Origin: an uncultured Dehalococcoidia bacterium | GTDB taxonomy: Bacteria > Chloroflexota > Dehalococcoidia > SZUA-161 > SpSt-899 | NCBI GenBank assembly: GCA_964548795.1 | Contig: CAZJSO010000002.1 | Location: forward strand, 1 to 40,772 | Direction of reading: 5' to 3' | Length of the DNA: 40,772 nucleotides | Shown: positions 2,102 through 34,668 of the stretch, piece after piece | How the letters are laid out: each line of letters starts with the position of its first letter | How positions within the stretch are numbered: the stretch's first letter is position 1 | Notes under the pieces: generated by a model | Databases searched by the model: none | Seen by the model: only the letters and a program-made list of their open reading frames with translations | What the model was told of the DNA's origin: nothing | Position numbers and translations under genes: made by a program

Positions 2102-4018
2102 TTGGAACAACTATTATCCATAGCTTCTGATGCTCCCGGGAAAAGGCTTTTCCTGATGGGAAACGAAGCCATAGCCCGGGGGGCCATAGAGGGAGGAGTT
2201 CAAGTTGCAGCCGCTTACCCTGGCACTCCTTCAAGTGAGATAATGGAGACCCTGGCCAGCGTAGCCAAGGAATTGGGCCTATACGTCGAGTGGTCCACCA
2301 ATGAGAAGGTGGCTTTCGAAGTAGCTTTAGCGGCCTCGGTAAGCGGCGTCAGGGCTTTGGCTTCTATGAAGCATGTCGGGGTGAATGTAGCTCATGATGC
2401 TATAGTAACCGCCAGCCATATAGGTGCTAAGGGTGGCCTGGTTCTAGTCGAGGCCGAGGATCCCTGGATGTGGAGCTCGCAGAATGAGCAAGACAACCGC
2501 CACATCGCTGAGCAGGCTTACTTGCCGGTGCTAGAGCCCTCCTCAGTTCAGGAGGCCAAGGATATGATGGCTCAAGCCTTCCAGCTCTCGGAGGAATTCG
2601 CGCACCCTTTCATAGTGAGATCGGTGACCCGCATAGGCCATGCCAGAAGCGATGTGGTTCTGGGCCAAATAACAAAGGAGAGAAGAGGAGGCTCCTTTCG
2701 GAAGGATCCCTCCTGGCTAGTCTATACCCCAGCTGGTGCCAGGAGGAACAAGCCTTTGATGCTGCAAAGGTTTGAGGCAATAAAGAGAGCCTCGAATGGC
2801 TTCCCCTATAACCAACTGAGCCTGGCTAAGGGAGCTGAATTGGGCATAGTCGCCTGCGGTCTTTCCTATAGCTACACCCTGGAGGCTCTGGAGTGGCTTG
2901 GCCTGGAAGGAAAGGTCTCCCTGCTTAAGATTGGGACACCTTATCCTCTGCCAGAAGAGCTGGTTAAGGAGTTGCTAAACTCCGTCAAAGAAGCGTTAGT
3001 AGTGGAGGAACTCGACCCATTTGTTGAGCTGCACCTGAAAGCTCTGGCACATGAAGCTGGCCTCTCGACCAAGATTCACGGCAAGGACTTGCTGCCTCGA
3101 ATTGGTGAACTCTCCACCCGCAAGGTTACCGAGGCCATCGCTAAATTGACCCACTCAAAGCTTCCGCTAGATTTCTCCAAGCTAGACAAACTGAAGGAGG
3201 AAGTAGCTCCCCTGGTACCTTTAAGGCCTCCGGCCCTTTGCCCAGGCTGTCCTCATCGAGCCTCCTTCTATGCCATTACCACTGCTGCCCGGAGAGTAGC
3301 CAGGGATTACGGGGAGGGAGTGCAACCCATTTATCCTGGCGATATTGGCTGTTATACCCTGGGTTACACTCCGCCACTGGAAGCGGTGGATACCACCATC
3401 TGTATGGGGGGTAGCTTTGGAATGGCTAACGGCCTAGCCCATGTGGTAAAGGCTCCCATAGTGGCCCACCTGGGAGACTCCACCTTTTTCCATGCTGGCA
3501 TACCTCCGCTAATAAATGCGGTCTACAATAAAGCCAATATAACCATGGTGGTGCTGGACAATTCAGCCACCGCTATGACTGGATTTCAGCCACACCCGGG
3601 CACAGGCTATACAGCCGTGGGCGACAAGACCACGCAACTGCGACCGGAGGAGGTGGCTCGGGGGTGCGGGGTACAGTTTGTCGAGGTGGTTGACCCTCTG
3701 GAGGTTGAGAAAGCCATCGCCACGGTGGAAAGAGCGATCAGGTTCGAAGGACCCTCGCTGGTAGTATTCCGGAGGCTTTGTACTACGCTAGAGCTCAGAG
3801 AGAAGAGGGAAAAAGGGGAGAAGATAATCCCCTATCGAGTAGATGAGGAAAAGTGCCAGATCAAGTGCAATGCCTGCATTAAGCTCCTGGGTTGCCCGGC
3901 CCTAATAAGGGTAGGGGGTAAGACTACCATTGATGCTTCTCTCTGCACCGGGTGTGGACTATGCGCTCAAATTTGCCCATATAATGCCATTGTAATAGGA
4001 GAGCAGGACAATGGCTGA
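2102..4018 (+). CDS. iorA: indolepyruvate:ferredoxin oxidoreductase alpha subunit
   Basis: 638 aa. N-terminal LMGNEAIARGAIEGGVQVAAAYPGTPSSEI, a TPP-binding region (GDIGCYTLG, GDSTFFHAG) and a C-terminal 2x[4Fe-4S] motif (CNACIKLLGCP, CTGCGLCAQICP). TTG start with a good SD. Confidence 0.9.
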   Translation: MEQLLSIASDAPGKRLFLMGNEAIARGAIEGGVQVAAAYPGTPSSEIMETLASVAKELGLYVEWSTNEKVAFEVALAASVSGVRALASMKHVGVNVAHDAIVTASHIGAKGGLVLVEAEDPWMWSSQNEQDNRHIAEQAYLPVLEPSSVQEAKDMMAQAFQLSEEFAHPFIVRSVTRIGHARSDVVLGQITKERRGGSFRKDPSWLVYTPAGARRNKPLMLQRFEAIKRASNGFPYNQLSLAKGAELGIVACGLSYSYTLEALEWLGLEGKVSLLKIGTPYPLPEELVKELLNSVKEALVVEELDPFVELHLKALAHEAGLSTKIHGKDLLPRIGELSTRKVTEAIAKLTHSKLPLDFSKLDKLKEEVAPLVPLRPPALCPGCPHRASFYAITTAARRVARDYGEGVQPIYPGDIGCYTLGYTPPLEAVDTTICMGGSFGMANGLAHVVKAPIVAHLGDSTFFHAGIPPLINAVYNKANITMVVLDNSATAMTGFQPHPGTGYTAVGDKTTQLRPEEVARGCGVQFVEVVDPLEVEKAIATVERAIRFEGPSLVVFRRLCTTLELREKREKGEKIIPYRVDEEKCQIKCNACIKLLGCPALIRVGGKTTIDASLCTGCGLCAQICPYNAIVIGEQDNG

Positions 4019-4616
4019 GGAACTCAACATACTGATCACCGGAGTTGGCGGACAAGGTGTTATTCTGATGTCTGAACTGCTTGGCAAAGCAGCCGTGGAT
4101 GACGGCTTGAAGGTAAGGGGCTCTGAAATATTGGGGATGGCAGTAAGGGGTGGGGCTGTGGTGAGCATCATCCGGATCGGTCAAGGAGTATTTGGCCCTC
4201 TTATACCTGAGGGAAAGTGCGACGTGCTGGTGGGGATGGAATTTGCCGAAGCGCTGAGAAACATTGCCTACCTCTCTAAATCGAGCTTGGCGGTGATTAA
4301 CTCCCGGAAGATAATTCCTTACACCGTTTCTTTGGGATTAAGTCCCTACCCTAGCTATGAGCAGGCCCTGGGAAAACTCAGGCAGGCTGCGGGAGAAGTG
4401 GTTGTTATAGATGGTGACCGACTCGCTCGCCAGGCCGGTGGTTCCCTTTCAACCAACATAGTCATGCTTGGTGCTTTATTTGGCACCCAACGACTTCCTA
4501 TAAAAACCGACACCATGAGAGGAACCATTAAAAGGCGTTTTCCAAAACAGGCGAAGATTAATCTTAAGGCCTTTGAGCTGGGTTACCAAGCTTGCCAGTG
4601 GAAAGGGGCTACGTGA
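4011..4616 (+). CDS. iorB: indolepyruvate:ferredoxin oxidoreductase beta subunit
   Basis: 201 aa with LITGVGGQGVILMSELLG (the gamma-type OFOR domain). The ATG overlaps the iorA stop by 8 nt. Confidence 0.9.
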   Translation: MAEELNILITGVGGQGVILMSELLGKAAVDDGLKVRGSEILGMAVRGGAVVSIIRIGQGVFGPLIPEGKCDVLVGMEFAEALRNIAYLSKSSLAVINSRKIIPYTVSLGLSPYPSYEQALGKLRQAAGEVVVIDGDRLARQAGGSLSTNIVMLGALFGTQRLPIKTDTMRGTIKRRFPKQAKINLKAFELGYQACQWKGAT

Positions 4617-4630: not shown

Positions 4631-5563
4631 TTATGGCTGCTCTCCAAACTCGGTGAGGTGGCGCAGGAAATTGAAGTTAGAATCCACCTCCTTCTGTAGC
4701 TGAGCCAGTTCCTCCTCGTTCAGGTGCCTGAACTTCCGAATTAGTTTGGTATACTCCCTAATTGGCTGAGGCTTGGCTGGTAGGTGTGTGAAACGAAATT
4801 TACCTCTTTCAGCCTCCCAGAGAGGGAAGTAATTAGTCCTCACCGCCATTCGGCACACTTCGATTGTCATATCGGTAGGTATCCCCCAGCCAGTGGGACA
4901 AGGGCTAAATATATGAATGTAAGCCATCCCTTCGTTCTTCATTTCCTTTGCCTTGAGCAGTTTGTTTACATAATCGCCCACATAGCTTAGGGTAGCAGTG
5001 GCCACATAAGGAATTCCATGCATCGCCATAATCAAAGGCAGGTTTTTGGCTTGTGTTTCCTTTCCTCTTCTGGCTACCCCGACCGGGGTAGTGGTGGTGC
5101 TAGCTCCAAAGGGGGTAGTACTGCTTCTCTGAACTCCGGTGTTCATATAGCCTTCATTGTCATAGGTGATGTAGATGAATCTTTCATTCCGTTCGGCTGC
5201 CCCGGAAAGGGGTTGGAAGCCTACGTCGGCAGCGCATCCATCCCCAGTGAAGCACACCAGTGTAATATCATGGCCTGTTTTACGATAGTACCGAGTGATG
5301 CCCGTTGCCTTTGAAGCCACGCCGGTCATAACAGAACTACAGTAGGCCAGACGATGCCAGCTACCTATGTTTTGCCCGTATAGGACAGGAGCTGAACAGG
5401 AAGGGGTACCCACGATGACTATTTCTTTACCTAGCGTCTTTGTCAGAAGCCTAAGCGCAAGCTCGAGGGGGCAACCAGAGCAGAAAGCGACCCCTCCAGC
5501 GAACTGATCTTCATAGCGAAGTTGCTCAAAAACCCTTGGCAGCTTTTTTGCCTTCTTTACCAT
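4631..5563 (-). CDS. 2-oxoacid:ferredoxin oxidoreductase beta (TPP-binding) subunit
   Basis: 310 aa with CSGCP near the N-terminus, GDGCAADVGFQPL and YDNEGYMNTGVQRS, typical of PorB/VorB/KorB. Its SD lies within the end of the alpha gene. Confidence 0.85.
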   Translation of the reverse strand: MVKKAKKLPRVFEQLRYEDQFAGGVAFCSGCPLELALRLLTKTLGKEIVIVGTPSCSAPVLYGQNIGSWHRLAYCSSVMTGVASKATGITRYYRKTGHDITLVCFTGDGCAADVGFQPLSGAAERNERFIYITYDNEGYMNTGVQRSSTTPFGASTTTTPVGVARRGKETQAKNLPLIMAMHGIPYVATATLSYVGDYVNKLLKAKEMKNEGMAYIHIFSPCPTGWGIPTDMTIEVCRMAVRTNYFPLWEAERGKFRFTHLPAKPQPIREYTKLIRKFRHLNEEELAQLQKEVDSNFNFLRHLTEFGEQP

Positions 5564-5566
5564 ACT

Positions 5567-6787
5567 CTACTCCTCTTCCTCCAATATCACCCAGGTTACT
5601 GCCTGGAATGCTTTGCCCTGTGAAGTGGCATAGACCTGCTCTATCATCCGCTCGATATGTTTCTTCGTGATATCCATGTTGGCTAGCCCATCTATGAAGT
5701 CCATTAGGGGGACAGAACCAATCTCAGGTGAAAGAGCTCTTAGCTCCATGTACATTGGCCCACAATTCCAGCCGAAAGAGATGCTGCGATCAATGACGCC
5801 AATGGCCTTCTTTCCCTTGAGAACCTGAACCAGTCTTTCGCCAGGGAATGGTCGGAACATCCTTATCTTGACCAGCCCGACTTTTATTCCCTCTTCCCGC
5901 TTTTGGTCAACCACTACCCGTGTCGTCCCAGTGGTGCTTCCTGAAGTGACCAGGACTATTTCAGCATCGTCGGTGCGGTACTCTTCTATTTGACCCCCAT
6001 AGCTGCGGCCGAAGAATTCCCCAAATTGCTTATCTATGTCATCCAGTTTCCGTTTGGCTCTTTCCATGGCAGCACAGTGTTTGTACCGTAGCTCAGTGTA
6101 CTCAGCCCAAAGTCCGTGGGATCCACATCCCAGAGGCTTGCCCGGGACGATCTTGAGGCGCTCGGGTTGCTCCTCCAAAGGTTGCATAAACCGGTCTACT
6201 TCTTTCCGGGCGGGAATATTCACTGCCTCTGAGAGATAGGAAAGGTAAAAGCCATCGTAGTTGACCATCACTGGCAGAAGAACCTCAATATCCTCTGCTA
6301 GTCGAAAGGCCATTATTACTGTGTCGAGAATTTCTTGGCAGTCTTCTACTACCAGCTGGATCCATCCGGTATCCCTAGTGCATATCATATCCTGCTGGCC
6401 AGAGGATACAGCTAGAATGCCTGGGGGTTCCCGATTAGAGTTAGCCATCACTACCGGGGCTCTAAATCCAGCCGTCTCCAGCATGGCATCATACATGAAT
6501 ACCAATCCCCAAGAAGAAGTAGCGGTAAATGCACGTCCGCCAGCAAGCGAAGCCCCCAGCACCACATTCATGGATGAATTCTCACCCTCGACTTCCACCA
6601 TCTCAGCATCCAAAATACCGTCGGCTTGGAACCTGGACAGTTGCTCTCCGACTTCAGTCTGCGGAGTTACAGGGAAGGAGGTAACTACATCTGGTCGGCA
6701 AAGCATGGCCCCATAAGCAACAGCTGCGTTGCCGGTTATCACCTTCACTTGTCCTTCTTCCTCTATTGCTTTCAAAACGTCCTTCAT
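5567..6787 (-). CDS. 2-oxoacid:ferredoxin oxidoreductase alpha subunit
   Basis: 406 aa with ITGNAAVAYGAMLCRPDVVTSFPVTPQTEV, the PorA-type N-terminus. It overlaps the delta gene by 4 nt. Confidence 0.85.
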   Translation of the reverse strand: MKDVLKAIEEEGQVKVITGNAAVAYGAMLCRPDVVTSFPVTPQTEVGEQLSRFQADGILDAEMVEVEGENSSMNVVLGASLAGGRAFTATSSWGLVFMYDAMLETAGFRAPVVMANSNREPPGILAVSSGQQDMICTRDTGWIQLVVEDCQEILDTVIMAFRLAEDIEVLLPVMVNYDGFYLSYLSEAVNIPARKEVDRFMQPLEEQPERLKIVPGKPLGCGSHGLWAEYTELRYKHCAAMERAKRKLDDIDKQFGEFFGRSYGGQIEEYRTDDAEIVLVTSGSTTGTTRVVVDQKREEGIKVGLVKIRMFRPFPGERLVQVLKGKKAIGVIDRSISFGWNCGPMYMELRALSPEIGSVPLMDFIDGLANMDITKKHIERMIEQVYATSQGKAFQAVTWVILEEEE

Positions 6788-7071
6788 TTCAGGAACTCCT
6801 TCTCAGACACCATGGTGATGGCATCATGGGGGCATTCCCTGGCGCAAATTCCACATCCTTTACAAAATTCTAAATTGGCCTCAAAGTGGTCTCCTTTATC
6901 AATCATGCACTGTGTAGGACAGTAAAGTGCGCACAGGGCACAATAGGTGCACTTCTCGTTGTCCACGATAGGTCTCTCAGTTCGCCAACTTCCCGTGTCA
7001 AGGCATAAAAGTTTCTCCTCTGCATTTGACCAGCATCCTTCATACCTGGAAGAAAATTCTCTCTTCACCAT
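6784..7071 (-). CDS. 2-oxoacid:ferredoxin oxidoreductase delta subunit (2x[4Fe-4S] ferredoxin)
   Basis: 95 aa with CTYCALCALYCP and CKGCGICARECP. Confidence 0.85.
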   Translation of the reverse strand: MVKREFSSRYEGCWSNAEEKLLCLDTGSWRTERPIVDNEKCTYCALCALYCPTQCMIDKGDHFEANLEFCKGCGICARECPHDAITMVSEKEFLK

Positions 7072-7613
7072 TTAGTCACCTTCACTTCCTCAAACCCGCG
7101 TTCAGCACTGCGAATATTGCGTCTCAGGATTTCACCCGTAAAATAGTCCCCCAAGGCCGACCGCAGATACTCTAGCTCCACCCAGCCAGTCGTGGCAGCA
7201 AATGCTCCCAATATGCAGGTATTAGGGACATCCCTTCCTATCTCCTCTACCGCAATTGTCGTGGCATCCAGCACACCAGCCACCTTGATATTCTCGCTCG
7301 GTCTTTTTACTAGCGGTATAGGACTGTTCAGCAGGAGAATTCCCTCCGGATGCAGGCCATCAAATAGCGTGGGCAAGGTCATCAAGGTTGGGTCTATTAC
7401 CACTAGGCAATCGGGATTATAGATCTGGGTCTTCTCCCTGATCGGTTTATCATCGAAACGGGCGAAGGCAACGACAGGAGCCCCGCGACGCTCGAAGCCG
7501 TACATTGGGAAGCTAGCAACATATTTACCCTGGGCCATAAGGGCGGTGGCCAACATCCTGGCTGCCATAACAGCTCCCTGCCCACCTCGCCCATGAAACC
7601 TGATTTCCTTCAT
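7065..7613 (-). CDS. 2-oxoacid:ferredoxin oxidoreductase gamma subunit
   Basis: IRFHGRGGQGAVMAARMLA motif. I prefer the ATG at 7613 over the track TTG at 7616 because SD GGAGGT lies 4 nt upstream. That SD begins right after the TAA of the upstream NrfD-like gene. Confidence 0.85.
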   Translation of the reverse strand: MKEIRFHGRGGQGAVMAARMLATALMAQGKYVASFPMYGFERRGAPVVAFARFDDKPIREKTQIYNPDCLVVIDPTLMTLPTLFDGLHPEGILLLNSPIPLVKRPSENIKVAGVLDATTIAVEEIGRDVPNTCILGAFAATTGWVELEYLRSALGDYFTGEILRRNIRSAERGFEEVKVTKW

Positions 7614-7626
7614 CAAACCTCCAAAA

Positions 7627-8526
7627 TTAAGCTGATGGCACGGTGGAAATAGGAGTCAGTGGATGATAGAAGCCGTTGCGCAGTATCAAATAGCGGAAGG
7701 TAACATCTCCCAGAAGTTCGAAGAAGATGGAGAGCCACAGAAGGGCTATTGGAATGGCCTCCAGGCCAGAGAGATACCCGCTGACCACCACGCCAAGGGG
7801 GAAGCAGACTCCTAATAATGCTACCACACCCCAGAATAATGGCCACCACCTTCCCGTTACTATCTCCCTAACCGAGAGCTCCCCTCCCTTGGAGCTATAC
7901 CTGACGCTAGTCAAATAGGCTGCTACGACAAGAATAAAGGCTCCAAGTAACATCCTAATCAGCCCCTCTAGTTCAGGTCCTGTCTGGCTGAATATGCCTC
8001 CAGCCAACATCACACCTAAAGCTAACTCAGCACCTCCCCAAAAGCCCGCCACCACATAAAGCACTGGCAGTAAGGCTGTATTCCATAGGGGTATCCCATT
8101 AACGTAGCTCATGGCAAAGCCACCGTATATGGTAACCAAGAAAGCTACAATCTCGAGTATTACTAGCAGTGCCAGGGGGGAGCTGGCCCAATAGGCCAGG
8201 GCCAGGTGTATGGCCCCTAAGACGATGAAGAGGGCAATGAATATCATGCCCCGAGAGATCCAGGAGGTTTGCGGCCTAAGAAAAGCCCGGTAGAATCTCA
8301 GAGGTTGTCCCAAATACAAAAGGTGGAACCCGCCACCCAGAACGATGCAGATAAGCCAGCCGATAAACATGCCCCACAGGCTATTGAACAAGGCAGCCAC
8401 AAACAGCATTCCAGCACCTAGCTCGATGAAAAAGAAAGCTAACCATAGGAGAACCCCCCGACCCTCTATCCATTCTCTTTGTGGGGTGTACCGGGTCATA
8501 AATTCAAATGGCCTTGTCTGAATCAT
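7627..8526 (-). CDS. NrfD/PsrC-type integral membrane subunit of a molybdopterin oxidoreductase
   Basis: 299 aa, hydrophobic throughout with about 8 predicted helices. It sits immediately downstream of the FeS and catalytic subunits. Confidence 0.7.
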   Translation of the reverse strand: MIQTRPFEFMTRYTPQREWIEGRGVLLWLAFFFIELGAGMLFVAALFNSLWGMFIGWLICIVLGGGFHLLYLGQPLRFYRAFLRPQTSWISRGMIFIALFIVLGAIHLALAYWASSPLALLVILEIVAFLVTIYGGFAMSYVNGIPLWNTALLPVLYVVAGFWGGAELALGVMLAGGIFSQTGPELEGLIRMLLGAFILVVAAYLTSVRYSSKGGELSVREIVTGRWWPLFWGVVALLGVCFPLGVVVSGYLSGLEAIPIALLWLSIFFELLGDVTFRYLILRNGFYHPLTPISTVPSA

Positions 8527-8546
8527 GACTTCAGACCTCCTTCCAA

Positions 8547-9191
8547 TTACTCTAAGTAGTATATTGAGGGATCAGTCCCGTACTCAGGGTGCAGTTGTCT
8601 GCCCTTGCGCCCTCTTATTAGCATGGAGACTTCGCTTCCAGGGTCTTCCAGATCGCCAAAGTACATGGCTTTAGTAGGGCAGTTAATTACACAGGCAGGA
8701 GTGGCTTCCCGGTCCACACCTGGCTTTAGTCCTTTAGCCATCCCAGCGTCAATCCTCTCCATACAGAAGTTACACTTCTCCACCGTGCCTGGCGTGTGAG
8801 GGTACAGTTGCTTACCAATCTCTTCGAAGGGCGTTAATCCTTGATCAGGGAAGTATTCATGCTCATCCGAGTAGAATGTTCGAGAATTGTAGGGACAGGC
8901 CATCATGCAATACCGGCAGCCCATGCATTTGTCTGGATCAACCCAAACGATGCCATCCTCCCGCCTCTGAGTGGCCCCGGTGGGGCAGACGTCCACGCAT
9001 TTGGCCTCCTTGCAATGGTTGCATCGTACCGGCAGAATATGCTTGCTCACCAGGGGATACTTTCCTGTCTCCGAAATCAAGACCCTGCACCAGAATACCC
9101 CCGGAGGGAGGAAATGCTCTGCTTTGCAGGTCAAAACGCAGTTCCAGCAGCCGATGCATTTCTTTAGATCTATGACCATTCCCCATCTCAT
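8547..9191 (-). CDS. four-cluster [4Fe-4S] electron-transfer subunit (PsrB/DmsB/NrfC type)
   Basis: Four Cys groups: CIGCWNCVLTC, CNHCKEAKCVDVCP, CMGCRYCMMACP and CNFC...CVINCP. Start moved to the ATG at 9191 (MRWGMVIDL), which is preceded by AGGAGGTG overlapping the stop of the catalytic gene. The track start at 9266 would overlap that gene by 64 nt. Confidence 0.85.
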   Translation of the reverse strand: MRWGMVIDLKKCIGCWNCVLTCKAEHFLPPGVFWCRVLISETGKYPLVSKHILPVRCNHCKEAKCVDVCPTGATQRREDGIVWVDPDKCMGCRYCMMACPYNSRTFYSDEHEYFPDQGLTPFEEIGKQLYPHTPGTVEKCNFCMERIDAGMAKGLKPGVDREATPACVINCPTKAMYFGDLEDPGSEVSMLIRGRKGRQLHPEYGTDPSIYYLE

Positions 9192-9202
9192 AAAGGCACC
9201 TC

Positions 9203-11974
9203 CTACTTTTTCTCCACGGCCGATATTATTGGCTCTATCTCCGGCCGCCAGGAAGGTGTTTTCCAAGCTCCTTCATACTCAACTCGACGGTTAGTCTTGT
9301 AGACCTTAACCCTAGCTGCTGTCTCCTGGCTGAAGGATATGGGGCAAACATGCTTAAAATCTGACTCTAACAGAATATTGAAGTTAGTCCCTTTACCAAA
9401 GGCGACAGGTTGGCCTTTGGCCCAACTTCCGGAACAGGCCGCGATGGACACCGTTTTGGGATGCATGCCTTGCATCGTCTTTAAATAACCGGTTACCTTC
9501 CTTCCGTAAGGTGTCTCCAGACAAATGAGATCCCCATCTTTCAGGCCCTTTTCCGCTGCTGTATCGGCATTCATAGTAATGGTGTAGGTATAAGGCGAAA
9601 GCCGACTGGCCTCATCTAACCAGGGGGCTTCCATAGTGCCCGAGCCAGCATGAAGTATATCACGGTAGGAGAAGCAGTAGAGGTCGTATTCTGAGTCTCC
9701 TTCCTTGGCCACCTGCGGTTTAAAGTAACTCAGCAAGGGCGTCCATTGTTCCCACTCAAGTTCCAGCCCGATCTTCCTGGCGTTTTCCATCACGTGAGGC
9801 CGGAGTTCGGCTATATGTTCCTGATAGATGGGAACTCTGGCTTTAACAAATGGCCTCCAGTAGGCCTCCCTTACTCGCTTGGGCCAGTGTATGTAGCCAT
9901 GCTCCTTGAAATAATCCAGCCCGTGGTCTGGGCCGAAGTAATACTTCAGCACTCGATCGATTAGCTCAGGGTAGGTGATTTTTTCCTCTGGTTTTATTAG
10001 CTCCACGACCTTGCTCTTGTCTATCCCGAAAGCGGCTCTCATGCCTTTAATATCACCGCCGATGAGAGCCTCACCGCCGAAGCTCGAGAAGTAAACGTTA
10101 TAATAGTGGTTGAGCTGCTCCCTCATCCCCAGCCGATCCATCAATTCCCAAAGGATCTCGATAACCTGGCGGCGTTCATATTGTGGCTTGACCACCGGCT
10201 GGCGAAGGGGGAAATACCAACCCTCAAGCCCAATGGGCCAGGTGAAGAAGGGGGCATGCTGTTCGAAGAGCCCCCAGCTCTCCATGGAGTGGGTATCTGG
10301 AAGCACTATATCAGCAAAGCCTTCGTTGAATTCATTGAAGGTAGTATTAATGGAAACCGTAAAAGGAACCTTCTTAAAGAATTCGGTTACTACCTCTCGG
10401 TTCTGAGTTGTGCGGGCAAAGTTGGCCCCATAAATGAGGGCCACTTTTATTTCATAGGGACGTCCGGCTTTGTTCCAGTAATCCTCAAAATCGCTGGTTG
10501 CCGGGTGAGGGGAGAAGGAAGCTGTGGGGACGAGATCCTTAAAGCACACATCGGCCGGCACTTTAGACTCCTCCACGGGCCAGGCCTTATGCTCCATCCA
10601 GGTCCCTGTAGTAAGCATGCCATCGCGGGGGTCAGGGTAGGGCATAATGATAAATCGGCCTGTCCCGGGGTAGCCCAAACTCACTGGAGGCCAGCCAATA
10701 GTGCCTCCGGGAACATCCATGGCCCCTACTATGGCATTAAGCAGGCATACGGACATGTAAGCGTGCCCCCCATTGGTATGCCCCTGACCACCGCGGAACA
10801 TTATGGCTGATACCGGCCTGTAGGGTAATTTCTCTACATCCCCAGCCTCTCCACGCACTTCAATAGTGCTACCTACCCTGGCTTCCTGAGCAAATTCGGT
10901 GGCGAGGCGATGGATCGTCTTGGCTGGCACGGTACTCATTTCCGAGGCGAACTCCGGGGTATACTGCTTAACGTGTTCCTTTATGAGTTGAAAGGCAGGC
11001 TGGCATTTGATGCCTTGCACTTCATAATTCCCGAAGAGCGCTACATCGGTAGAGTCAATGATGCTAGGGTCATCCCAGACCTTGGCTTTGCCTTCCTTTT
11101 CATCCCACAGCATCGGCTTACCAGTCTCCTTATCCCTTACGTAGGTCAAATCAGAGCCAACTAAGTAGGAACCATTCGTCCTCGTCTTGAGAAAGTCGGC
11201 GTCGTATATCCCAAGCTCGTTCAAAATCACGTTGACCATGGCCAAGGCTATGGCCCCGTCCGTTCCAGGCAGCAGAGGAATCCACTCAGTAGCCTTACCA
11301 CCACCAAAGTTGCACATGGGGTCGAAGACTACAATTTTAGCCCCCCTGGCTCGGGCCTCGGCTGCCAGCCGAGCATTGAAGCCGAAGGAATGGCCGGAGC
11401 CTGCACCTTTGTTAGAGCCGAAGTAAATAACGTAATTGGTATATTTCCAATCGGGGACAATTGACCAGGAAGCATGGAAAAGGCCAGCCCCTAGGTGGGC
11501 TGCATTTCCACAGTGGAGTCCAGCTCCGCCAATATACCAGTTGGGGGTGCCGAAAAGGGATCCGAAAACGGCGAAACCTAAGGCCAAGTTGGAGGCCGTA
11601 CCTGGAGTGGGGGTGCCTCCGTGCAGAAGCTGGCGAGGGTCGTCCTTTATCTCCTTTAGCCTTTGGGTTATCTCGTCGAGGGCCTCATCCCAGGATATTC
11701 GCTTCCATTGGGGGTCCTCGAAAAGTCCCTTCTTCGGATTAGTCCGCCTCATGGGGTAGTTCACCCGATTAGGGTCGTAGAACTGCTGAATGAGAGCCGG
11801 AGCCTTGGCACATACGCCACCTCGAGGGCCAAAGTCTGTGTCAGGGTCTCCTTCTACCTTTACAATCACGCCGTTCACCCGATGAACCCTGATGGTGCAG
11901 GTGGCATAGCACCCTCCGCAAGTGGTCCTAACCCAGGTATCGTCCCATATTTCTGGTTGTTTAGCCTCTGGCAT
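9203..11974 (-). CDS. molybdopterin (bis-PGD) oxidoreductase catalytic subunit, DMSO-reductase superfamily, no signal peptide
   Basis: About 923 aa with an N-terminal CGGCYATC...C [4Fe-4S] motif and a candidate Mo-ligand region GLHCGNAAH. Start taken as the ATG at 11974, because the track GTG at 11983 is part of the SD GAAGGAGGTG. Only about 20 residues precede the first Cys, with no RR motif. Confidence 0.85.
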   Translation of the reverse strand: MPEAKQPEIWDDTWVRTTCGGCYATCTIRVHRVNGVIVKVEGDPDTDFGPRGGVCAKAPALIQQFYDPNRVNYPMRRTNPKKGLFEDPQWKRISWDEALDEITQRLKEIKDDPRQLLHGGTPTPGTASNLALGFAVFGSLFGTPNWYIGGAGLHCGNAAHLGAGLFHASWSIVPDWKYTNYVIYFGSNKGAGSGHSFGFNARLAAEARARGAKIVVFDPMCNFGGGKATEWIPLLPGTDGAIALAMVNVILNELGIYDADFLKTRTNGSYLVGSDLTYVRDKETGKPMLWDEKEGKAKVWDDPSIIDSTDVALFGNYEVQGIKCQPAFQLIKEHVKQYTPEFASEMSTVPAKTIHRLATEFAQEARVGSTIEVRGEAGDVEKLPYRPVSAIMFRGGQGHTNGGHAYMSVCLLNAIVGAMDVPGGTIGWPPVSLGYPGTGRFIIMPYPDPRDGMLTTGTWMEHKAWPVEESKVPADVCFKDLVPTASFSPHPATSDFEDYWNKAGRPYEIKVALIYGANFARTTQNREVVTEFFKKVPFTVSINTTFNEFNEGFADIVLPDTHSMESWGLFEQHAPFFTWPIGLEGWYFPLRQPVVKPQYERRQVIEILWELMDRLGMREQLNHYYNVYFSSFGGEALIGGDIKGMRAAFGIDKSKVVELIKPEEKITYPELIDRVLKYYFGPDHGLDYFKEHGYIHWPKRVREAYWRPFVKARVPIYQEHIAELRPHVMENARKIGLELEWEQWTPLLSYFKPQVAKEGDSEYDLYCFSYRDILHAGSGTMEAPWLDEASRLSPYTYTITMNADTAAEKGLKDGDLICLETPYGRKVTGYLKTMQGMHPKTVSIAACSGSWAKGQPVAFGKGTNFNILLESDFKHVCPISFSQETAARVKVYKTNRRVEYEGAWKTPSWRPEIEPIISAVEKK

Positions 11975-12108: not shown

Positions 12109-12138
12109 ACAATAGCACTTCGCTGGATATTTTGTCAA
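12109..12138 (-). promoter_or_regulatory. putative promoter for the molybdoenzyme/OFOR cluster
   Basis: The minus strand reads TTGACA (12138-12133), an 18-nt spacer ending in TGc, then TATTGT (12114-12109). This would give a 5' UTR of about 125 nt. Confidence 0.3.
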
Positions 12139-14181: not shown

Positions 14182-14994
14182 TTAGATTTGGTAAGGCTCA
14201 TGCAGTGAATCTTCCATTTCCCGAACCAGAGTGAGGCCCTCTTCCTCAGTGAGTTCTATGCCCTTCTCAACCCTCTCTAGGTATTCATCTATGTGAGGTC
14301 TTTGCCGCCTTATTTCAGCAATTCTTCTCTCCTGCTGTTCCGCCCTCTGCTGGCAAGCTGAAAGATTTAATTGCAGCTCCAGCACCTGACATACACTTTC
14401 CAGCATAATTTCCACCATGCGGCGGTCCTCAATATTGGCCAGGTAAAAGGGAACCTCCCCCCAGAAGCTGACTGCCGAAAGCCTGCGCCTCTTAGCCAAC
14501 CAGAGCAAGAAGCCACTCATTGAGGTGGAGCCGTGGTAGCTGATAAAATCGAGAGGGTATGGAGATAGCTCTTGCCTTAGTTCTGGCCGGTTGAACACCG
14601 TCAGCACCCGACGTTTTCCCAAGTGCCCTGTCCTAGAGACCAGACCCCCAATGGTGTAGATCCTTTTGACCTTTAGCTCTTCGGCGAGGTCAAGCAGCAG
14701 GCTCAAGAATTCATACTGCGCCTGTGATGGTTGCATACTACGAAAAAGGATAAGGTTGGCTTGCTCTGAGTAATATAATGTGGAGGTAGGAAATTCAATC
14801 ACGTCAGCTTCTATAGAAACTGCGTTAAGTGAGAAGTAACCCAAGGGATTAAAGCGACAGAATTCCTCTGCCCCGACTTCTTGGCTCACATAATCAATAA
14901 GCTCCCCTCCCAGTGCTCCGGCATCTGGTTCCCAGCCCACCAATAAGCATGGCCGACGGATTTTAGGCCGTTTAAGAAATCTGATTTTCTCCAT
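14182..14994 (-). CDS. PAC2-family (proteasome assembly chaperone-like) protein, paralogue 2
   Basis: 270 aa. The N-terminal PCLLVGWEPDAGALGGELIDYV and the central RIYTIGGL and GEVPFY segments parallel the upstream paralogue. Length falls in the PAC2 family range. Assigned by eye. Confidence 0.6.
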   Translation of the reverse strand: MEKIRFLKRPKIRRPCLLVGWEPDAGALGGELIDYVSQEVGAEEFCRFNPLGYFSLNAVSIEADVIEFPTSTLYYSEQANLILFRSMQPSQAQYEFLSLLLDLAEELKVKRIYTIGGLVSRTGHLGKRRVLTVFNRPELRQELSPYPLDFISYHGSTSMSGFLLWLAKRRRLSAVSFWGEVPFYLANIEDRRMVEIMLESVCQVLELQLNLSACQQRAEQQERRIAEIRRQRPHIDEYLERVEKGIELTEEEGLTLVREMEDSLHEPYQI

Positions 14995-14999
14995 AGTTT

Positions 15000-15890
15000 C
15001 TAACTCCGCTTCTCCTTTCCGCCTTTAAAGAATTCTTCGATTTCCTTCATGATCCGTTCTTTATCCTTTTCAGTTATTGGCCCAACTTGTGGCACAATGG
15101 ACTTCAGCTTATCAAGCTCTCTTCTCACCTCTGGAGGGAAGCTCTCATACAGTTTCTCAATTTCTCGATCGGCTTGCTCGGCATAAAATCCAATCTCCCC
15201 CATGTCAATGTGAAGGTCAAGTATATGGGTGAGGACACTAAGAATAGACCGAGAGGCCTTAGGATACTGTAGAGGAAAGTGAGCGATATAGACCGGAATT
15301 TCCCCTAGAAAGCAAGCCCCCTCCATATTTCTTTCTTTGGCCACCCCTATCAAAACGCCGTTAAGGCCGGTAATGTTCCCGCTACCCCGCCGTTCCTCCA
15401 GTTCGCTGAGTAGCACCACGTTATGCCTCTTCAGCTCCGACAAGAGGTAGCGGCTATTAGGCACAGCCCAGACTCTTGGTTCAAATGTATGGTGAATTGA
15501 GGCCACTGCGGCCGCAGCGGTGTAAACTCGGCTTACGCCGAATTGCTGAGCTACATCGAGGATGAGGTTGGTCAAGGCATAGATTTTACTCTCCTCATGT
15601 GGCTGAGCCCCTCCGAGGAAGAATATCAGGTCAGGTTCACCTCGGTAGTAGAAGAAGATATTCTCCGGGAATTCCATGTCCCGCATTAGGCCATCTTCAA
15701 TCAGCACTTTATGGGGAAAGAAAAAGGGCTCTGGATTTATCTCAGCAAATCTTCTGGCCCTAAGCTTAGTCCTGAGATAACTCACCGTAGAAATGCCAAT
15801 GTTGGCTATGCCTGGCCAGCCAGCGATGAGGATGGGACTTTTAAGCTGTGGCCGACTGTAGAACCTGATTTCTGATTTAGGATTTTTCAC
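15000..15890 (-). CDS. PAC2-family (proteasome assembly chaperone-like) protein, paralogue 1
   Basis: 296 aa with SPILIAGWPGIANIGISTVSYL, RVYTAAA, ITGLNGVL and GEIPVY, resembling archaeal PbaA/PbaB-type PAC2 proteins. The GTG start shares 1 nt with the VWA gene stop, and a strong SD GGGGGAG is present. Confidence 0.65.
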   Translation of the reverse strand: MKNPKSEIRFYSRPQLKSPILIAGWPGIANIGISTVSYLRTKLRARRFAEINPEPFFFPHKVLIEDGLMRDMEFPENIFFYYRGEPDLIFFLGGAQPHEESKIYALTNLILDVAQQFGVSRVYTAAAAVASIHHTFEPRVWAVPNSRYLLSELKRHNVVLLSELEERRGSGNITGLNGVLIGVAKERNMEGACFLGEIPVYIAHFPLQYPKASRSILSVLTHILDLHIDMGEIGFYAEQADREIEKLYESFPPEVRRELDKLKSIVPQVGPITEKDKERIMKEIEEFFKGGKEKRS

Positions 15891-17146
15891 TAAACTCCCC
15901 CTTTCCTCAACTTGAGGTAGTCCTCGACCACCACCTTGCCCAGCGTAATCGGGGAGGTAAAGAACACTCGCCCCAGATTTCTTCTGGCCAAACTTGAGGC
16001 CAGGCGTCTTAACCTGGGGGTTTCGTCCAGCATGATTATATTGAGTCCTATAGCCTGCTGACGGTAGAGCCAGGCTTCTTCCAGCAGGCCTAAAGCGGCC
16101 TGTTCAAAACCAACATAGGCACCGTCCTCCATGTTAGGCTCAGCATCTGTGATCAAGTAAGCCTGCCGAGCTCCCTTCTGCCCCGCTACTGCTTTGCGAA
16201 AGGCTCGCAAGGCAGAGCGAATATCAGTGGCTCCACCGGTCATTACCTCATTGATGATCGCCCAAGGGGATATACGCCTGACCTTTTCGGAAAAGCTGAA
16301 GATTAACACTTCATCCTTTGGCTCCCGGCGGACGAGTTCAGAAAGTGCCAGAGCTGTTTCTAGGGCCGCCTCAAGCTTGTAACCATTCCTCATGGAACCA
16401 CTCTCATCAATAATTATCCCGGAGCAGATATTTATTTGGTGAATTTCCTCATGTATCTCGAAATCCCCCAACTCAAACCTTAACCCGCCGCATCTCCGTA
16501 GGGCATTCAAGGCAGTTTTCTCCACGTCCACCAAGGAATAGTCGTCGCCAAATTCATAGCTCCTGGTGTAAAGGGAAAGCTCTGCTCCAAAGCCAGGCTT
16601 CTCCATAAGATGAGAGCCCACATCTTTACCAACTAAGTGACGAAGAATGCGCTCTAAAATGCCTGAAGCCAACTTCCGGGCACCCCTGGAAGTTATCTTA
16701 ATCTTTCTATCCTCAATCTCGATATAACCTTCCTGCCGCAATTCCTGCAGAGCTTTTTCAACATCACCTTCGCCGATGCCAGATGATTTCCATCTCAGGT
16801 TCCTTATTCTTTCCTGTAGCTCTCTTCTGATTTCGTCTTCAAGGAGGCGCTGGGCTAATTCCTCTACCGATCCACCCTTAAGCAAGCTATCCATGACCTC
16901 ATAGGAGAGCCTCTCCTCGTACTCCTGCAATAAGTTTTCATATTCTTGAAGTCTGTTTTTTTCTTCACGGTCTCTCTCCTCCTTGAATCTCCTCAGCCTC
17001 TGTCCAAGTGAGCTTTCCGGATGTTGATAGGACAGGCGGATAACATCCCTTAAAGGGCGGCCCCCAAGCTGAGCGAGCTCTTGGAGCAGTTCGCTCTCTG
17101 TCTTGAGCTGACATCGGTCACAATATTCCCTCGCTGGGTAGGTCAA
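15890..17146 (-). CDS. VWA-domain protein (intact MIDAS) with coiled-coil N-terminal half
   Basis: 418 aa. The C-terminal VWA domain has DESGSM (DxSxS) plus downstream T and D positions. The N-terminal half is rich in E/R/L heptads. The TTG start overlaps the AAA+ gene stop (TTGA) and is preceded by SD GGGGG. Confidence 0.8.
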   Translation of the reverse strand: MTYPAREYCDRCQLKTESELLQELAQLGGRPLRDVIRLSYQHPESSLGQRLRRFKEERDREEKNRLQEYENLLQEYEERLSYEVMDSLLKGGSVEELAQRLLEDEIRRELQERIRNLRWKSSGIGEGDVEKALQELRQEGYIEIEDRKIKITSRGARKLASGILERILRHLVGKDVGSHLMEKPGFGAELSLYTRSYEFGDDYSLVDVEKTALNALRRCGGLRFELGDFEIHEEIHQINICSGIIIDESGSMRNGYKLEAALETALALSELVRREPKDEVLIFSFSEKVRRISPWAIINEVMTGGATDIRSALRAFRKAVAGQKGARQAYLITDAEPNMEDGAYVGFEQAALGLLEEAWLYRQQAIGLNIIMLDETPRLRRLASSLARRNLGRVFFTSPITLGKVVVEDYLKLRKGGV

Positions 17147-18666
17147 ATTCTGCCCCCGAACTTGTCCGGTAAAAATATCCCGACCATTTTCGCCCGGTCC
17201 AAAGCCCTTTGGTGCAGGGCAAGGTTAGCTAGAATTTCCAGAGCAGAAAAGTTGGCTTCCTCAATGACTTCTGAGTTCCGCTCCAGACTTTCTAATTCTG
17301 ATGACCTGCATCTCATTTTATGGATAACCTGCGACAGCTCTTCACGCTTGGAGATAAGTTCTTCTGGCACCTTGCCAGTGGAAAGGTTAACCTCGGAGAG
17401 CAGGGAACTAAGCTCCTGGGCCAACTTCTGGTGATTATACTCGCCCAAGAATTGCCCCTCATCCTTAAGATCCTCGAACACATTCCACATAAAATCAGCC
17501 GTTAGTTCGTCGCCTAGCAGGAAAGTTTTTTGGGGGTTGTCCAAGTCAATGAGGTCAGCTCGAAGGCCTACCCTTCCTCGGAGTGCCAACTTGAGGCCAT
17601 GATAAGCCTGTCGCAAGTTAGCTACCTGCCGATTCTCCAGCTCCACGCTGGCGTAGGTATGGTCCAGAGCCCTGTTGCTAGCCCTTATGCTGGGTTTCTT
17701 CTCCACGTAGGGGCAGATACGACTATATCTTACCGATTTATTGAGCAGATCGACAATCCACCAAGGAACAATCGCCTTACGCTCAATTTCCTCAAGCTCA
17801 GGGTAAGAGGGCTCTTCTTCTAAATTCACCTCAGCATAAGGCTTCACCCGGAAAGTCTCCTTGAGCATTATTCGGCGCTCAACTTCCTCCTCAGGCAAAT
17901 CCATGTAGACCGGCTCAAGGCGGTCGAGGAGGGGACGAGGTATTTCGTTCACATGAGCGAACCCCCGGGGATTGCCCGTGGCAATGAGCACTAGGTCGAG
18001 AGGATGCTCCCAGTTATACTCCTCTAAGATAGCCTTCTTCTCCTCCAGAATTGGGTGGAAGAGGACCTGTACCTTGGTGCGGATGGCAGGAAGCTCATCC
18101 ACAAAGAGTATTCCTCTATTGGCCCGGAACACTCCGGTACCGGTAAAAACTCGAGGATCGGAGGGGCTTTTGCCTTTAGCAATTGCCTGGATATCCTTGA
18201 GGCCAAGTAACTTGGCCTCGTTAGTGTACTCATTTCCCTGAATACGGGAGAATCGCCTTGGGCCGGGAATGAAGTCGATTCCGAATTCTTTCACCGGGTC
18301 TTTAGCTTGACGGCAACGGGGACAAAGCAGTTCTCTAGGCCACTTGGGATCATCATGGTAGGGGCATCCCCGGATGAATGGAACACGCGGAAGCAACCTG
18401 GTAAGTGACCTGGCCAGCCTTGTTTTCCCAGTGCCCTCCTCCGAAATAAGATAGGGATGTGCTCCGGAGAGAAGAGCCCGTACGACATCAGCCTTAGTTT
18501 CCTGCCGGCCATCGATCTCTGGCAAGAGTTCCTCTCCCCGCCTTATTTTTCTCAAAAGAACCCCTCTGATCTGATGGGCTACAGGCAGGGGCTGGTAACC
18601 ATCCAGGTCAAAGCTAGACTTCTCTTTGAAAGTGGGGTAAGATTTTCTTAAGAGTTTTCCCAGCAT
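17143..18666 (-). CDS. AAA+ ATPase of the ChlI/BchI (Mg-chelatase-like) type with zinc-knuckle insert
   Basis: 507 aa with Walker A EEGTGKT, Walker B ILFVDEL, sensor ATGNP and PLLDRL. It has a CPYH...CPRC insert at the position where BchI/ChlI carry their Cys-rich insert, and a C-terminal extension of about 200 aa of unknown type. Confidence 0.8.
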   Translation of the reverse strand: MLGKLLRKSYPTFKEKSSFDLDGYQPLPVAHQIRGVLLRKIRRGEELLPEIDGRQETKADVVRALLSGAHPYLISEEGTGKTRLARSLTRLLPRVPFIRGCPYHDDPKWPRELLCPRCRQAKDPVKEFGIDFIPGPRRFSRIQGNEYTNEAKLLGLKDIQAIAKGKSPSDPRVFTGTGVFRANRGILFVDELPAIRTKVQVLFHPILEEKKAILEEYNWEHPLDLVLIATGNPRGFAHVNEIPRPLLDRLEPVYMDLPEEEVERRIMLKETFRVKPYAEVNLEEEPSYPELEEIERKAIVPWWIVDLLNKSVRYSRICPYVEKKPSIRASNRALDHTYASVELENRQVANLRQAYHGLKLALRGRVGLRADLIDLDNPQKTFLLGDELTADFMWNVFEDLKDEGQFLGEYNHQKLAQELSSLLSEVNLSTGKVPEELISKREELSQVIHKMRCRSSELESLERNSEVIEEANFSALEILANLALHQRALDRAKMVGIFLPDKFGGRI

Positions 18667-18684: not shown

Positions 18685-19377
18685 ATGTCTGGACTTCCAA
18701 CCATAGTCGAGATTTTGAGGTATCTTCGCAGTAATGCCACACCCCACACCTACGAAGATATTATCAGCCAGACCTCGGGGAGTCAAGGCCGGGTTGAGCA
18801 GGCACTCACGAAACTGGTAACCAGTGGAATGGTGAGGGCTAAGGGGAAGCTCTACCAGTACATCCCTACTCCCGAAGCTGAAGAACTATGTCAGAAACTT
18901 TTCGATCTATATGAGCGAGTAGTGCAAAAATCTCGGCTGGAATTACTCCTCCGGGGAATTTTGTCCCAAAGCGCCCAGCGTTATTTCTTCAAGATGGACA
19001 CGCTCAGGGAGATGCTGGAGAGGGAGGGATTTGCCTCTCAGGAGGTAAGCCAATTGCTGAAAGAGGAAATCAGGAAAGGACACATTCGACACTTAAAGTT
19101 GGTCTTTGTGACCAAGCTCCCTTTCTCAGCTCCTATTTATGTGCCTTTGGCGTATATCTCACACTTCGGGCCAGTTCGTTCTCAGGAGTACGAGGCGCTA
19201 AAGGAATATTCACAGATCAAAGGGCTAGATTTCATCGAGGAGGATTATCTCCAAGCTGATTACCCTCCAGAGCTAGCTCAGCCAGGACAGGAATATCTCA
19301 AGAAAGAGGCAGGACGGATTCTGGAGAAATTGAGGGAAGAAGCCTTACTCCAGTGGTATAGCCTTAGAGGCTATTAA
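18685..19377 (+). CDS. hypothetical protein with N-terminal winged-helix DNA-binding-like domain
   Basis: 230 aa. The first ~65 aa (TIVEILRYLRSN...HTYEDIISQTSGSQGRVEQALTKLVTSGMVRAKGKLY) look like a MarR/ArsR-type wHTH; the rest is unassigned. It is divergent from the AAA+ gene with only 18 bp between the start codons. Confidence 0.5.
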   Translation: MSGLPTIVEILRYLRSNATPHTYEDIISQTSGSQGRVEQALTKLVTSGMVRAKGKLYQYIPTPEAEELCQKLFDLYERVVQKSRLELLLRGILSQSAQRYFFKMDTLREMLEREGFASQEVSQLLKEEIRKGHIRHLKLVFVTKLPFSAPIYVPLAYISHFGPVRSQEYEALKEYSQIKGLDFIEEDYLQADYPPELAQPGQEYLKKEAGRILEKLREEALLQWYSLRGY

Positions 19378-30042: not shown

Positions 30043-30053
30043 AGCCTCTTACC

Positions 30054-31993: not shown

Positions 31994-32159
31994 GACGCAC
32001 CCCTTTCAGGTAATTAGGCTTTCAGGGTAACAAATCGAAACCCCGCCCCATGCACACGAATTATTTTATCGCTGTCTTCCAGATGTGGCAAGCTCTTTGA
32101 AGTCACCGAAAGGTTGCCACAGGAGAGCCCAGCGAAGTAAAATATTTGCGGAGGGCAAA

Positions 32160-32369: not shown

Positions 32370-32400
32370 GCAGCGTTTGCTTTTAAGAATCAAAAAGGCA

Positions 32401-32517: not shown

Positions 32518-32520
32518 GCT

Positions 32521-33852: not shown

Positions 33853-33881
33853 TGGCTCCCCCTTAATTTTTTGAGAATTGA

Positions 33882-34643: not shown

Positions 34644-34668
34644 CTCTCCTCCTTTACTTTTTGTTTAT

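Follow-up and report, generated by a model that had tools for sequence, protein, structure and literature searches.

A probable Pad-type gene cluster for anaerobic alpha-oxidation of arylacetyl-CoA in an uncultured Dehalococcoidia bacterium

The pad cluster has been described in Thauera aromatica, Azoarcus (Aromatoleum) evansii, Aromatoleum aromaticum EbN1, and Sedimenticola selenatireducens (PMC5109826, PMC4453571, PMC9765128). In this cluster, padBCD encode a molybdenum-iron-sulfur (Mo-FeS) phenylacetyl-CoA:acceptor oxidoreductase bound to the membrane, which converts phenylacetyl-CoA to phenylglyoxylate by alpha-oxidation, while padEFGHI encode phenylglyoxylate:NAD+ oxidoreductase, a Por-type 2-oxoacid:ferredoxin oxidoreductase (OFOR) with an extra flavoprotein subunit that yields benzoyl-CoA, and padJ encodes the phenylacetate-CoA ligase (PMC5109826, PMC4453571, PMC9765128). 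Genes for both enzymes have been reported earlier from the single-cell genome of a marine Dehalococcoidia (PMC4959651) and from Desulfotomaculum gibsoniae (PMC4148979). Here, we examine a stretch of 40,772 nucleotides (nt) of contig CAZJSO010000002.1 from an uncultured Dehalococcoidia bacterium (hereafter, the window), in which seven co-directional genes at 4631-11974 encode a three-subunit Mo-FeS enzyme and a four-subunit OFOR. From sequence comparisons, the cluster most likely belongs to the known Pad-type pathway, as a Dehalococcoidia version with a four-subunit, ferredoxin-type OFOR and an adjoining indolepyruvate:ferredoxin oxidoreductase (IOR). An earlier sequence-only reading of this DNA had not recognized the pairing of the two enzymes as a described system, a view overturned by the published padBCD and padEFGHI genes (PMC5109826, PMC4453571) and by the genes for both enzymes in one marine Dehalococcoidia single-cell genome (PMC4959651).

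The window shares with the pad cluster a three-subunit membrane Mo-FeS enzyme, its Mo and FeS subunits facing the cytoplasm, that lies directly beside a Por-type 2-oxoacid oxidoreductase and is encoded in the same direction. In addition, relatives of the window (loci L025, L034, and L081, below) show the full B-C-D-E-F-G-H-I order, and relatives carry PaaK-type ligases. There are also differences. The OFOR of the window has four subunits, with neither the PadH flavoprotein nor the PadI ferredoxin domain, and it does not reach the NCBIfam cut-offs for Pad equivalogs; there is no ligase gene, and IorAB is encoded alongside; and the host is an uncultured Dehalococcoidia bacterium rather than a denitrifying proteobacterium.

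Other known systems share parts of this plan. The Psr, Phs, Arr, and Ttr complexes, including ArrAB (6cz7) and PsrABC/thiosulfate reductase (2vpw), likewise combine a bis(molybdopterin guanine dinucleotide) (bis-MGD) subunit bearing FS0 with a four-cluster protein and an NrfD-type anchor, and they provide the best sequence matches among solved structures. However, their catalytic subunits are exported by the twin-arginine translocation (Tat) route and act on inorganic substrates outside the cytoplasm, whereas the window enzyme has no such signal, a Mo subunit about 100-150 residues longer, and an organic-acid catabolic context. SoeABC, compared here by description only, is a cytoplasm-facing, NrfD-anchored sulfite-oxidizing enzyme. 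It too places a cytoplasmic active site on an NrfD anchor, and the electrons it gains by oxidizing its substrate enter the membrane, as we propose for the enzyme of the window, but the window has no sulfur-oxidation context, and the conserved partners are instead an OFOR, a CoA ligase, and IOR. Finally, the OFOR has the four-subunit composition of archaeal/Thermotoga-type PorABCD/VorABCD, and its gamma and delta subunits pass TIGR02175 and TIGR02179, yet it reaches none of the pyruvate or 2-ketoisovalerate equivalog cut-offs.

Conservation of the cluster and its Pad-like relatives

The pairing of the Mo enzyme with an OFOR extends well beyond the window. A profile scan with the Mo subunit, covering one genome per GTDB species, returned 79 loci, in which the window's nine proteins were mapped by tblastn. 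A close clade, with Mo subunits at least 64% identical to that of the window, comprises 35 genomes, all Chloroflexota and mostly labeled Dehalococcoidales. The OFOR is adjacent and co-directional in 29 of the 30 genomes of this clade that could be evaluated (L028 is the one without it, and five others are cut by contig ends). Among distant loci, where the Mo subunit is 43-52% identical, the OFOR is adjacent in 12 of 21 evaluable cases and absent in nine, while 23 more were not evaluable. OFOR-linked loci span Chloroflexota, Thermodesulfobacteriota/Desulfobacteraceae, Desulfatiglandales, and Clostridia, and the OFOR is linked too in L081, a locus from a Pseudomonadota metagenome-assembled genome (MAG) that was fetched separately from the scan. 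The adjacency is far beyond chance and is excluded as fortuitous; the synteny comparison that the sequence-only reading had suggested shows that it is not unique to this genome. Three gene orders occur. In 27 close relatives, porGDAB precedes the Mo, FeS, and NrfD-type genes; in the window, L011, L025, L034, L065, L068, and L081, the Mo-FeS-NrfD genes come first and the OFOR follows; and in L069 and L073 the order is shuffled. Because the linkage survives rearrangement across phyla, it indicates a functional tie between the two enzymes.

The main Dehalococcoidales layout, found in 27 species-level genomes, consists of a divergent PaaK-like ligase gene, a MarR gene, porGDAB, and the Mo-FeS-NrfD genes. 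It has the same seven genes as the window and the same four-subunit type of OFOR, with identities of 67-72% for the Mo subunit, 66-68% for the FeS subunit, and 58-73% for the OFOR subunits. It differs in gene order, with the OFOR ahead of the Mo enzyme, the reverse of the window, L011, and L025, and in that it carries the ligase and MarR genes, whereas the window has IorAB and no regulator gene adjoining the cluster. Furthermore, the membrane subunit in these genomes (L002-L031 and L079) is only 36-41% identical to that of the window; in this group the anchor diverges much faster than its Mo and FeS partners. A PaaK-type (phenylacetate-CoA-ligase family) gene adjoins the cluster in 16 loci, and in 17 there is a MarR regulator gene next to it. 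The ligase contains the AMP-binding_C_2 domain, and its best NCBIfam matches are two phenylacetate-CoA ligase models, with scores below cut-off.

Other relatives reproduce the arrangement of the described pad genes. In L025, the nearest relative that has another OFOR (its Mo subunit shares 82% identity with the window's), the Mo-FeS-NrfD genes precede those for gamma, delta, and alpha and then a PadH-like gene of 422 aa and a PadI-like gene of 440 aa, which is the padBCDEFGHI order; the full-length top NCBIfam matches of the last two are PadH (340 bits) and PadI (405 bits). The same layout recurs in L034 (Thermodesulfobacteriota) and in L081, whose Mo subunit (P0054) is 51% identical to that of the window over its full length. 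L081 further encodes a trio resembling 4-hydroxybenzoyl-CoA reductase (alpha subunit 727 bits) and a tripartite ATP-independent periplasmic (TRAP) transporter. PadH-like genes lie between alpha and beta in L025, L034, L071, and L081. The OFOR module has been exchanged among close relatives: despite the 82% identity of their Mo subunits, the OFORs of L025 (14360-18974) and the window (4631-7613) are only 46-54% identical, and the window and L011 have the four-subunit type. Between the window and the main clade, identities are 58-73% for the OFOR and 67-72% for the Mo subunit. A rough neighbor-joining tree of 82 Mo subunits places the window clade and the L081-containing clade as sisters. Submitters' names include "padB2" for P0033 (66% identical) and, in IMG, "phenylglyoxylate dehydrogenase epsilon subunit" for neighboring PadH homologs.

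The family to which the Mo subunit belongs is varied. An exhaustive search of representatives yielded 599 clusters at 50% identity with E <=1e-30, only about six of which are full length and at least 46% identical. In L057, L060, and L071, an acyl-CoA dehydrogenase gene comes after the Mo and FeS genes, joined in L060 by an electron transfer flavoprotein (ETF) gene, and no NrfD-type gene was detected in these three loci, a hint of soluble variants whose electrons leave by another outlet. Single Dehalococcoidales MAGs may hold several copies of the Mo gene (L047, L052, L063, and L066 in CAZQRP01; L001, L032, and L039 in CAZNSC01), and L066 (10001-17000) has three in tandem. Many of the copies adjoin ATP-binding cassette (ABC) or TRAP transporter genes, with no OFOR nearby. 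A search with a Rhodospirillales relative recovered only a betaproteobacterial paralog clade named "related to phenylacetyl-CoA:acceptor oxidoreductase," 45% identical to the Mo subunit of the window. In L080, from a Betaproteobacteria MAG (GCA_001770655.1), the Mo-FeS-NrfD genes are followed by MarR, amidohydrolase_2, an AMP-binding ligase, and a peptidase_S15-family hydrolase, without an OFOR; this cluster probably represents a paralogous pathway. Because these 45%-identical betaproteobacterial proteins sit in an OFOR-free cluster, the Mo family must be wider than PadB proper.

Subunit features, proposed reactions, and competing explanations

The Mo enzyme is built for the cytoplasmic side of the membrane, judging from its sequence. 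Its Mo subunit begins MPEAKQPEIWDDTWVRTTCGGC, with the CxxCxxxC...C FS0 motif from residue 19, and its FeS subunit begins MRWGMVIDLKKC, without a signal peptide. Neither subunit has a twin-arginine motif or a hydrophobic leader, and since export signals are absent, both are predicted to be cytoplasmic and to be held to the membrane by the NrfD-type subunit. The FeS subunit has 16 cysteines in four CxxCxxCxxxC-type sets, and hydropathy gives the anchor about eight hydrophobic/transmembrane helices and, presumably, a quinone site. As in PadBCD, the three genes follow one another in B-C-D order within one operon-like run. NCBIfam apparently has no models for PadB, PadC, or PadD, and against its named families the Mo subunit scores far below every cut-off (PhsA is best with 180 of 694 bits; ArrA scores 170 of 1600 and TtrA 88 of 1750); the best scores of the FeS subunit are with DsrO (181 of 200) and ArrB. 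The closest solved structure to the Mo subunit is ArrA (6cz7, E 1.7e-46), with the match mostly over the N-terminal third. A conserved cysteine, C155, falls opposite ArrA's Cys-containing active-site stretch in the alignment and may be the Mo ligand. The "Psr/Soe-like" label of the sequence-only reading captures the three-subunit architecture but goes no further.

The OFOR has separate gamma, delta, alpha, and beta subunits with the Pfam domains POR, POR_N, PFOR_II, and TPP_enzyme_C, which places it in the four-subunit Por/Vor type. The gamma subunit passes TIGR02175 PorC_KorC (206 bits; cut-off 81) and scores 195 of 300 bits with the PadE model. The delta subunit passes TIGR02179 PorD_KorD (88 bits; cut-off 60), while its top match is the PadF model (92 of 150). 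The top NCBIfam match of the beta subunit is PadI (311 of 700 bits), which aligns only over profile positions 147-438 of 443. All pyruvate and 2-ketoisovalerate equivalog cut-offs are missed (PorA 413 of 550, PorB 306 of 405, PorC 195 of 270, PorD 85 of 120). The five-subunit relatives likewise miss the NCBIfam Pad cut-offs, and for this reason the Pad models appear narrow. An NCBIfam equivalog assignment was considered for both the OFOR and the Mo enzyme and set aside, as no equivalog cut-off was reached.

We propose that the cluster probably encodes two consecutive steps of Pad-type anaerobic alpha-oxidation, taking arylacetyl-CoA to aroyl-CoA in the degradation of phenylalanine or phenylacetate. 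The PadBCD-like enzyme, recognized by architecture homology and synteny, would oxidize the alpha-methylene group of phenylacetyl-CoA by four electrons, with water as the oxygen donor, to give phenylglyoxylate, and its electrons would travel via the four [4Fe-4S] clusters to the NrfD-type anchor, with a membrane quinone as their presumed acceptor. A cytoplasmic catalytic site would be expected for such an enzyme, because its substrate is a CoA thioester. The four-subunit OFOR would then convert phenylglyoxylate and CoA to benzoyl-CoA and CO2 while reducing ferredoxin. Ferredoxin rather than NAD+ is the likely acceptor, since the OFOR lacks PadH and the PadI ferredoxin domain, and the conserved linkage to a PadBCD-like enzyme argues for an arylglyoxylate as its substrate.

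A preceding step may be supplied by the two genes next to the cluster, iorAB, which are convergent with it, the IorB stop lying 15 nt from the OFOR beta stop. The same convergent iorBA is present in L011, and in the deltaproteobacterial L073 iorAB is again a neighbor of the cluster. Arylpyruvates are turned into arylacetyl-CoA by IOR (PMC5109826), and we propose that IorAB is the supplier of arylacetyl-CoA to the cluster, forming phenylacetyl-CoA by oxidative decarboxylation of phenylpyruvate or acting on another arylpyruvate derived from an aromatic amino acid. Because IOR makes the CoA ester directly from the 2-oxoacid, a ligase would be dispensable when degradation starts from an aromatic amino acid; in the 40.8-kb window, a search for a padJ-like phenylacetate-CoA ligase found no encoded AMP-binding protein.

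Several observations weigh against this assignment. Members of the Mo family occur without a nearby OFOR in nine evaluable distant loci, in L028 of the close clade, and in the betaproteobacterial L080, and family membership alone is therefore no proof of substrate. No biochemically characterized PadB was among the homologs recovered in the homolog and representative-cluster searches, and orthology is argued from architecture, topology, synteny, and annotators' names. Comparable searches gave a best match of 30% identity against plasmids (tblastn) and no PGAP-named proteobacterial PadH among the best 120 matches to the PadH of L081. In the OFOR, every Pad equivalog cut-off (PadE, PadF, PadG, and PadI) is missed, and the alpha subunit scores about equally against PorA_Arch, the archaeal pyruvate synthase (413 of 550 bits), and PadG (388 of 700), such that sequence alone leaves its substrate unfixed. 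There is no room for a PadH gene between alpha and beta, which lie only 3 nt apart, and at 310 aa, against about 440 aa for PadI, the beta subunit lacks the N-terminal ferredoxin domain. Finally, the window has no genes for a CoA ligase, thioesterase, aminotransferase, or benzoyl-CoA reductase, and a quinone is only presumed to be the membrane acceptor in this organism.

The same chemistry might serve another substrate. It is conceivable, if rather unlikely, that the cluster acts on 4-hydroxyphenylacetyl-CoA, indoleacetyl-CoA, or a non-aromatic acyl-CoA and on the matching 2-oxoacid, which would make it a Pad-like module and not a strict phenylacetate pathway. IOR takes all three aromatic 2-oxoacids (PMC5109826), the 4-hydroxybenzoyl-CoA-reductase-like trio of L081 points to a hydroxylated substrate in that locus, and the failure to reach any Pad equivalog cut-off fits as well, as does the variety of the Mo family, with its multiple copies (up to three in tandem), varied contexts, ABC and TRAP transporters, and distant three-gene OFORs that are 31-41% identical. 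Set against this, the PaaK-type ligases and PadH/PadI-type OFORs of the relatives are most similar to phenylacetate and phenylglyoxylate enzymes, and no feature of the window indicates a non-aromatic substrate. A broader version, to which we give a low probability, is that the PadB-like Mo enzymes of Dehalococcoidales are not one phenylacetate enzyme but have diversified into a family of modules for anaerobic alpha-oxidation. In its favor, they are multi-copy in single genomes, are paired with different OFOR types, and in L057, L060, and L071 lack the anchor and accompany an acyl-CoA dehydrogenase. If so, the complex of the window could act on an arylacetyl-CoA or other acyl-CoA that is not yet known to be degraded in this manner, and its electrons might go to an acceptor other than a classical quinone. 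Some Dehalococcoidia lack quinone synthesis.

The remaining explanations concern how the two enzymes are connected. The sequence-only reading had suggested that 2-oxoacid oxidation or reductive carboxylation is wired to a molybdoenzyme or quinone module. On such a model, electrons at ferredoxin potential from 2-oxoacid oxidation would pass to the FeS subunit and on to quinone or to a substrate that is reduced at the Mo site, and reductive carboxylation would use the opposite direction. The genes are packed as in an operon, and the membrane-subunit stop is directly followed by a ribosome-binding site, as could be expected of such an electron-transfer unit; both partners bear ferredoxin-like [4Fe-4S] modules on the cytoplasmic side, and the OFOR, having no NAD-linked subunit, needs some acceptor for its electrons. 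Even so, we find the idea very improbable. In relatives, the same Mo enzyme is found with an OFOR of five subunits, one of them a PadH-type flavoprotein that gives this OFOR an outlet of its own (the characterized PadH subunit passes electrons to NAD+), and the exchange of OFORs between close relatives such as L025 and the window, together with an unfixed gene order, would be unexpected for a dedicated docking pair. Moreover, the conserved PaaK-type ligase, MarR, and IOR neighbors indicate organic-acid catabolism, and the published pad system accounts for the pairing without any wiring. Scarcely credible, in our estimation, is a respiratory or sulfur-metabolizing complex of the Psr, Phs, Arr, Ttr, or Soe kind that is merely cotranscribed with an ordinary pyruvate:ferredoxin oxidoreductase. 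Such a complex would be suggested by the best NCBIfam and PDB matches of the Mo subunit (PhsA, ArrA, and type II DMSO-reductase-family enzymes) and of the FeS subunit (DsrO and ArrB) and by the good scores of the OFOR with archaeal Por models. But the PhsA, ArrA, TtrA, and DsrO scores are all under their family cut-offs, the PDB matches cover mainly the N-terminal third, the Tat signal by which the catalytic subunits of Psr, Phs, Arr, and Ttr are exported is missing, no sulfur or arsenic genes were found near the cluster in the window, and the conserved synteny excludes a fortuitous adjacency. We therefore return to the Pad-type assignment, under which the link between the Mo enzyme and the OFOR is most likely metabolic, with the product of one being the substrate of the other, and not a ferredoxin-to-quinone connection. 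The swapped OFOR module, the varying electron outlet, and the varying gene order argue for consecutive pathway steps over a fixed electron relay.

Gene layout and neighboring genes

The seven minus-strand open reading frames (ORFs) of the cluster, identified by Pfam and NCBIfam profile searches, are tightly packed and co-directional (Table 1). An independent public gene call for the same contig (ENA k141_177550, 53 kb) has identical boundaries except for the start of OFOR gamma, and the cluster proposed by the sequence-only reading is therefore real. From the Mo gene to the beta gene, the spacings are an 11-nt gap, a 20-nt gap, 13 nt, a 7-nt overlap, a 4-nt overlap, and a 3-nt gap. These agree with the earlier values except for the third, previously a 10-nt gap, which applies if gamma starts at TTG 7616. 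Three points make the ATG at 7613 the better start: the GGAGG located 4 nt upstream, an NCBIfam alignment that sets in at the second residue of the TTG version, and the 182 aa of the public call.

Table 1. Cluster genes, adjoining IOR genes, and promoter-like site in the window
Feature	Coordinates	Strand	Description
Mo catalytic subunit	9203-11974	-	923 aa, 104 kDa; Pfam Molybdop_Fe4S4, Molybdopterin, Molydop_binding; PadB-like, bis-MGD type
Four-cluster [4Fe-4S] electron-transfer subunit	8547-9191	-	214 aa (public gene call likewise 214 aa); PadC-like
NrfD/PsrC-type integral membrane anchor	7627-8526	-	299 aa; Pfam NrfD 49 bits, DmsC 27 bits; PadD-like
OFOR gamma	7065-7613	-	182 aa from ATG at 7613
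OFOR delta, 2x[4Fe-4S] ferredoxin-like	6784-7071	-	95 aa
OFOR alpha	5567-6787	-	406 aa; Pfam POR_N, PFOR_II
OFOR beta (thiamine pyrophosphate and [4Fe-4S])	4631-5563	-	310 aa
IorA, indolepyruvate (arylpyruvate):ferredoxin oxidoreductase alpha	2102-4018	+	TIGR03336 IOR_alpha 786 bits, cut-off 651
IorB	4011-4616	+	TIGR03334 IOR_beta 200.2 bits, cut-off 205.8, aligned full length; Pfam POR
Promoter-like site	12109-12138	-	TTGACA, 18 nt, TGnTATTGT; 10/12 consensus matches plus TG extension

The junction between the NrfD-type and gamma genes is uninterrupted, as the sequence-only reading had held: the ribosome-binding site of gamma directly follows the membrane-subunit stop, and a sequence scan of 7614-7626 found no terminator-like or promoter-like site. 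Across the region, the counts of such sites are at the level of shuffled sequence. The seven genes have a single strong candidate promoter, a site that precedes the Mo-subunit start by about 135 nt; it is kept in the relative L011 (91% identical) and, in part, in L025. A riboswitch (e.g., a Moco riboswitch) or other RNA upstream of the Mo gene was considered and set aside, as about 300 nt upstream of that gene had no Rfam match at gathering score. There are no tRNAs within the window. Taken together, the tight spacing, the sole good promoter-like site upstream of the first gene, and the conserved adjacency of the Mo enzyme and the OFOR support the earlier view that the seven genes form one functional unit.

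Elsewhere in the window, a minus-strand run at 28855-40726 encodes functions of acyl-CoA catabolism. It includes EtfA with an N-terminal 2x[4Fe-4S] domain, EtfB, a thiolase, an enoyl-CoA hydratase, and an acyl-CoA dehydrogenase whose best matches, below cut-off, are acryloyl-CoA reductase and cyclohexane-1-carbonyl-CoA dehydrogenase, as well as the beta subunit of a Na+-translocating decarboxylase (passing TIGR01109), an mmdA-like carboxyltransferase, and a thiolase-domain protein. This run could be responsible for downstream acyl-CoA processing with a sodium pump, although none of its genes reached a model specific to the benzoyl-CoA lower pathway. A more specific role for the 28.8-40.7 kb genes as the lower pathway of benzoyl-CoA was considered and not counted as support, since the dehydrogenase and carboxyltransferase reach no model specific for glutaryl-CoA or glutaconyl-CoA. 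Two adjacent short ORFs on the minus strand, at 24359-24772 and 24777-25118, match the N-terminal (profile 2-112) and C-terminal (133-237) halves of Pfam TauE/SafE and are either a split or interrupted gene of the sulfite-exporter family or two half-size genes. Also on the minus strand, 14182-18666 holds two consecutive PAC2-family genes, a VWA-domain gene, and an AAA_5 (MoxR-like) ATPase gene; public annotation gives the VWA protein an Rv0959-type domain. A plus-strand ORF of 230 aa at 18685-19377 has no Pfam match at E <=1e-5, and the public annotation has the same 230 aa with no domain.

Probable aromatic amino-acid degradation by uncultured Dehalococcoidia

What appeared to be a new redox machine can be replaced by a concrete and testable assignment, which adds no new category of system. 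It is useful mostly for annotation and for the ecology of how uncultured Dehalococcoidia break down aromatic amino acids. The assignment may correct the annotation of hundreds of MAG genes that are called [quoted passage not shown] or "pyruvate synthase," and it suggests that the Pad models of NCBIfam are too narrow for clusters from outside the proteobacteria. In addition, the cluster offers a compact gene set for asking how a strict anaerobe disposes of the four electrons that a Mo-dependent hydroxylation and oxidation would release. Uncultured Dehalococcoidia of sediment and groundwater appear able to shorten arylacetates derived from aromatic amino acids to aroyl-CoA without oxygen.

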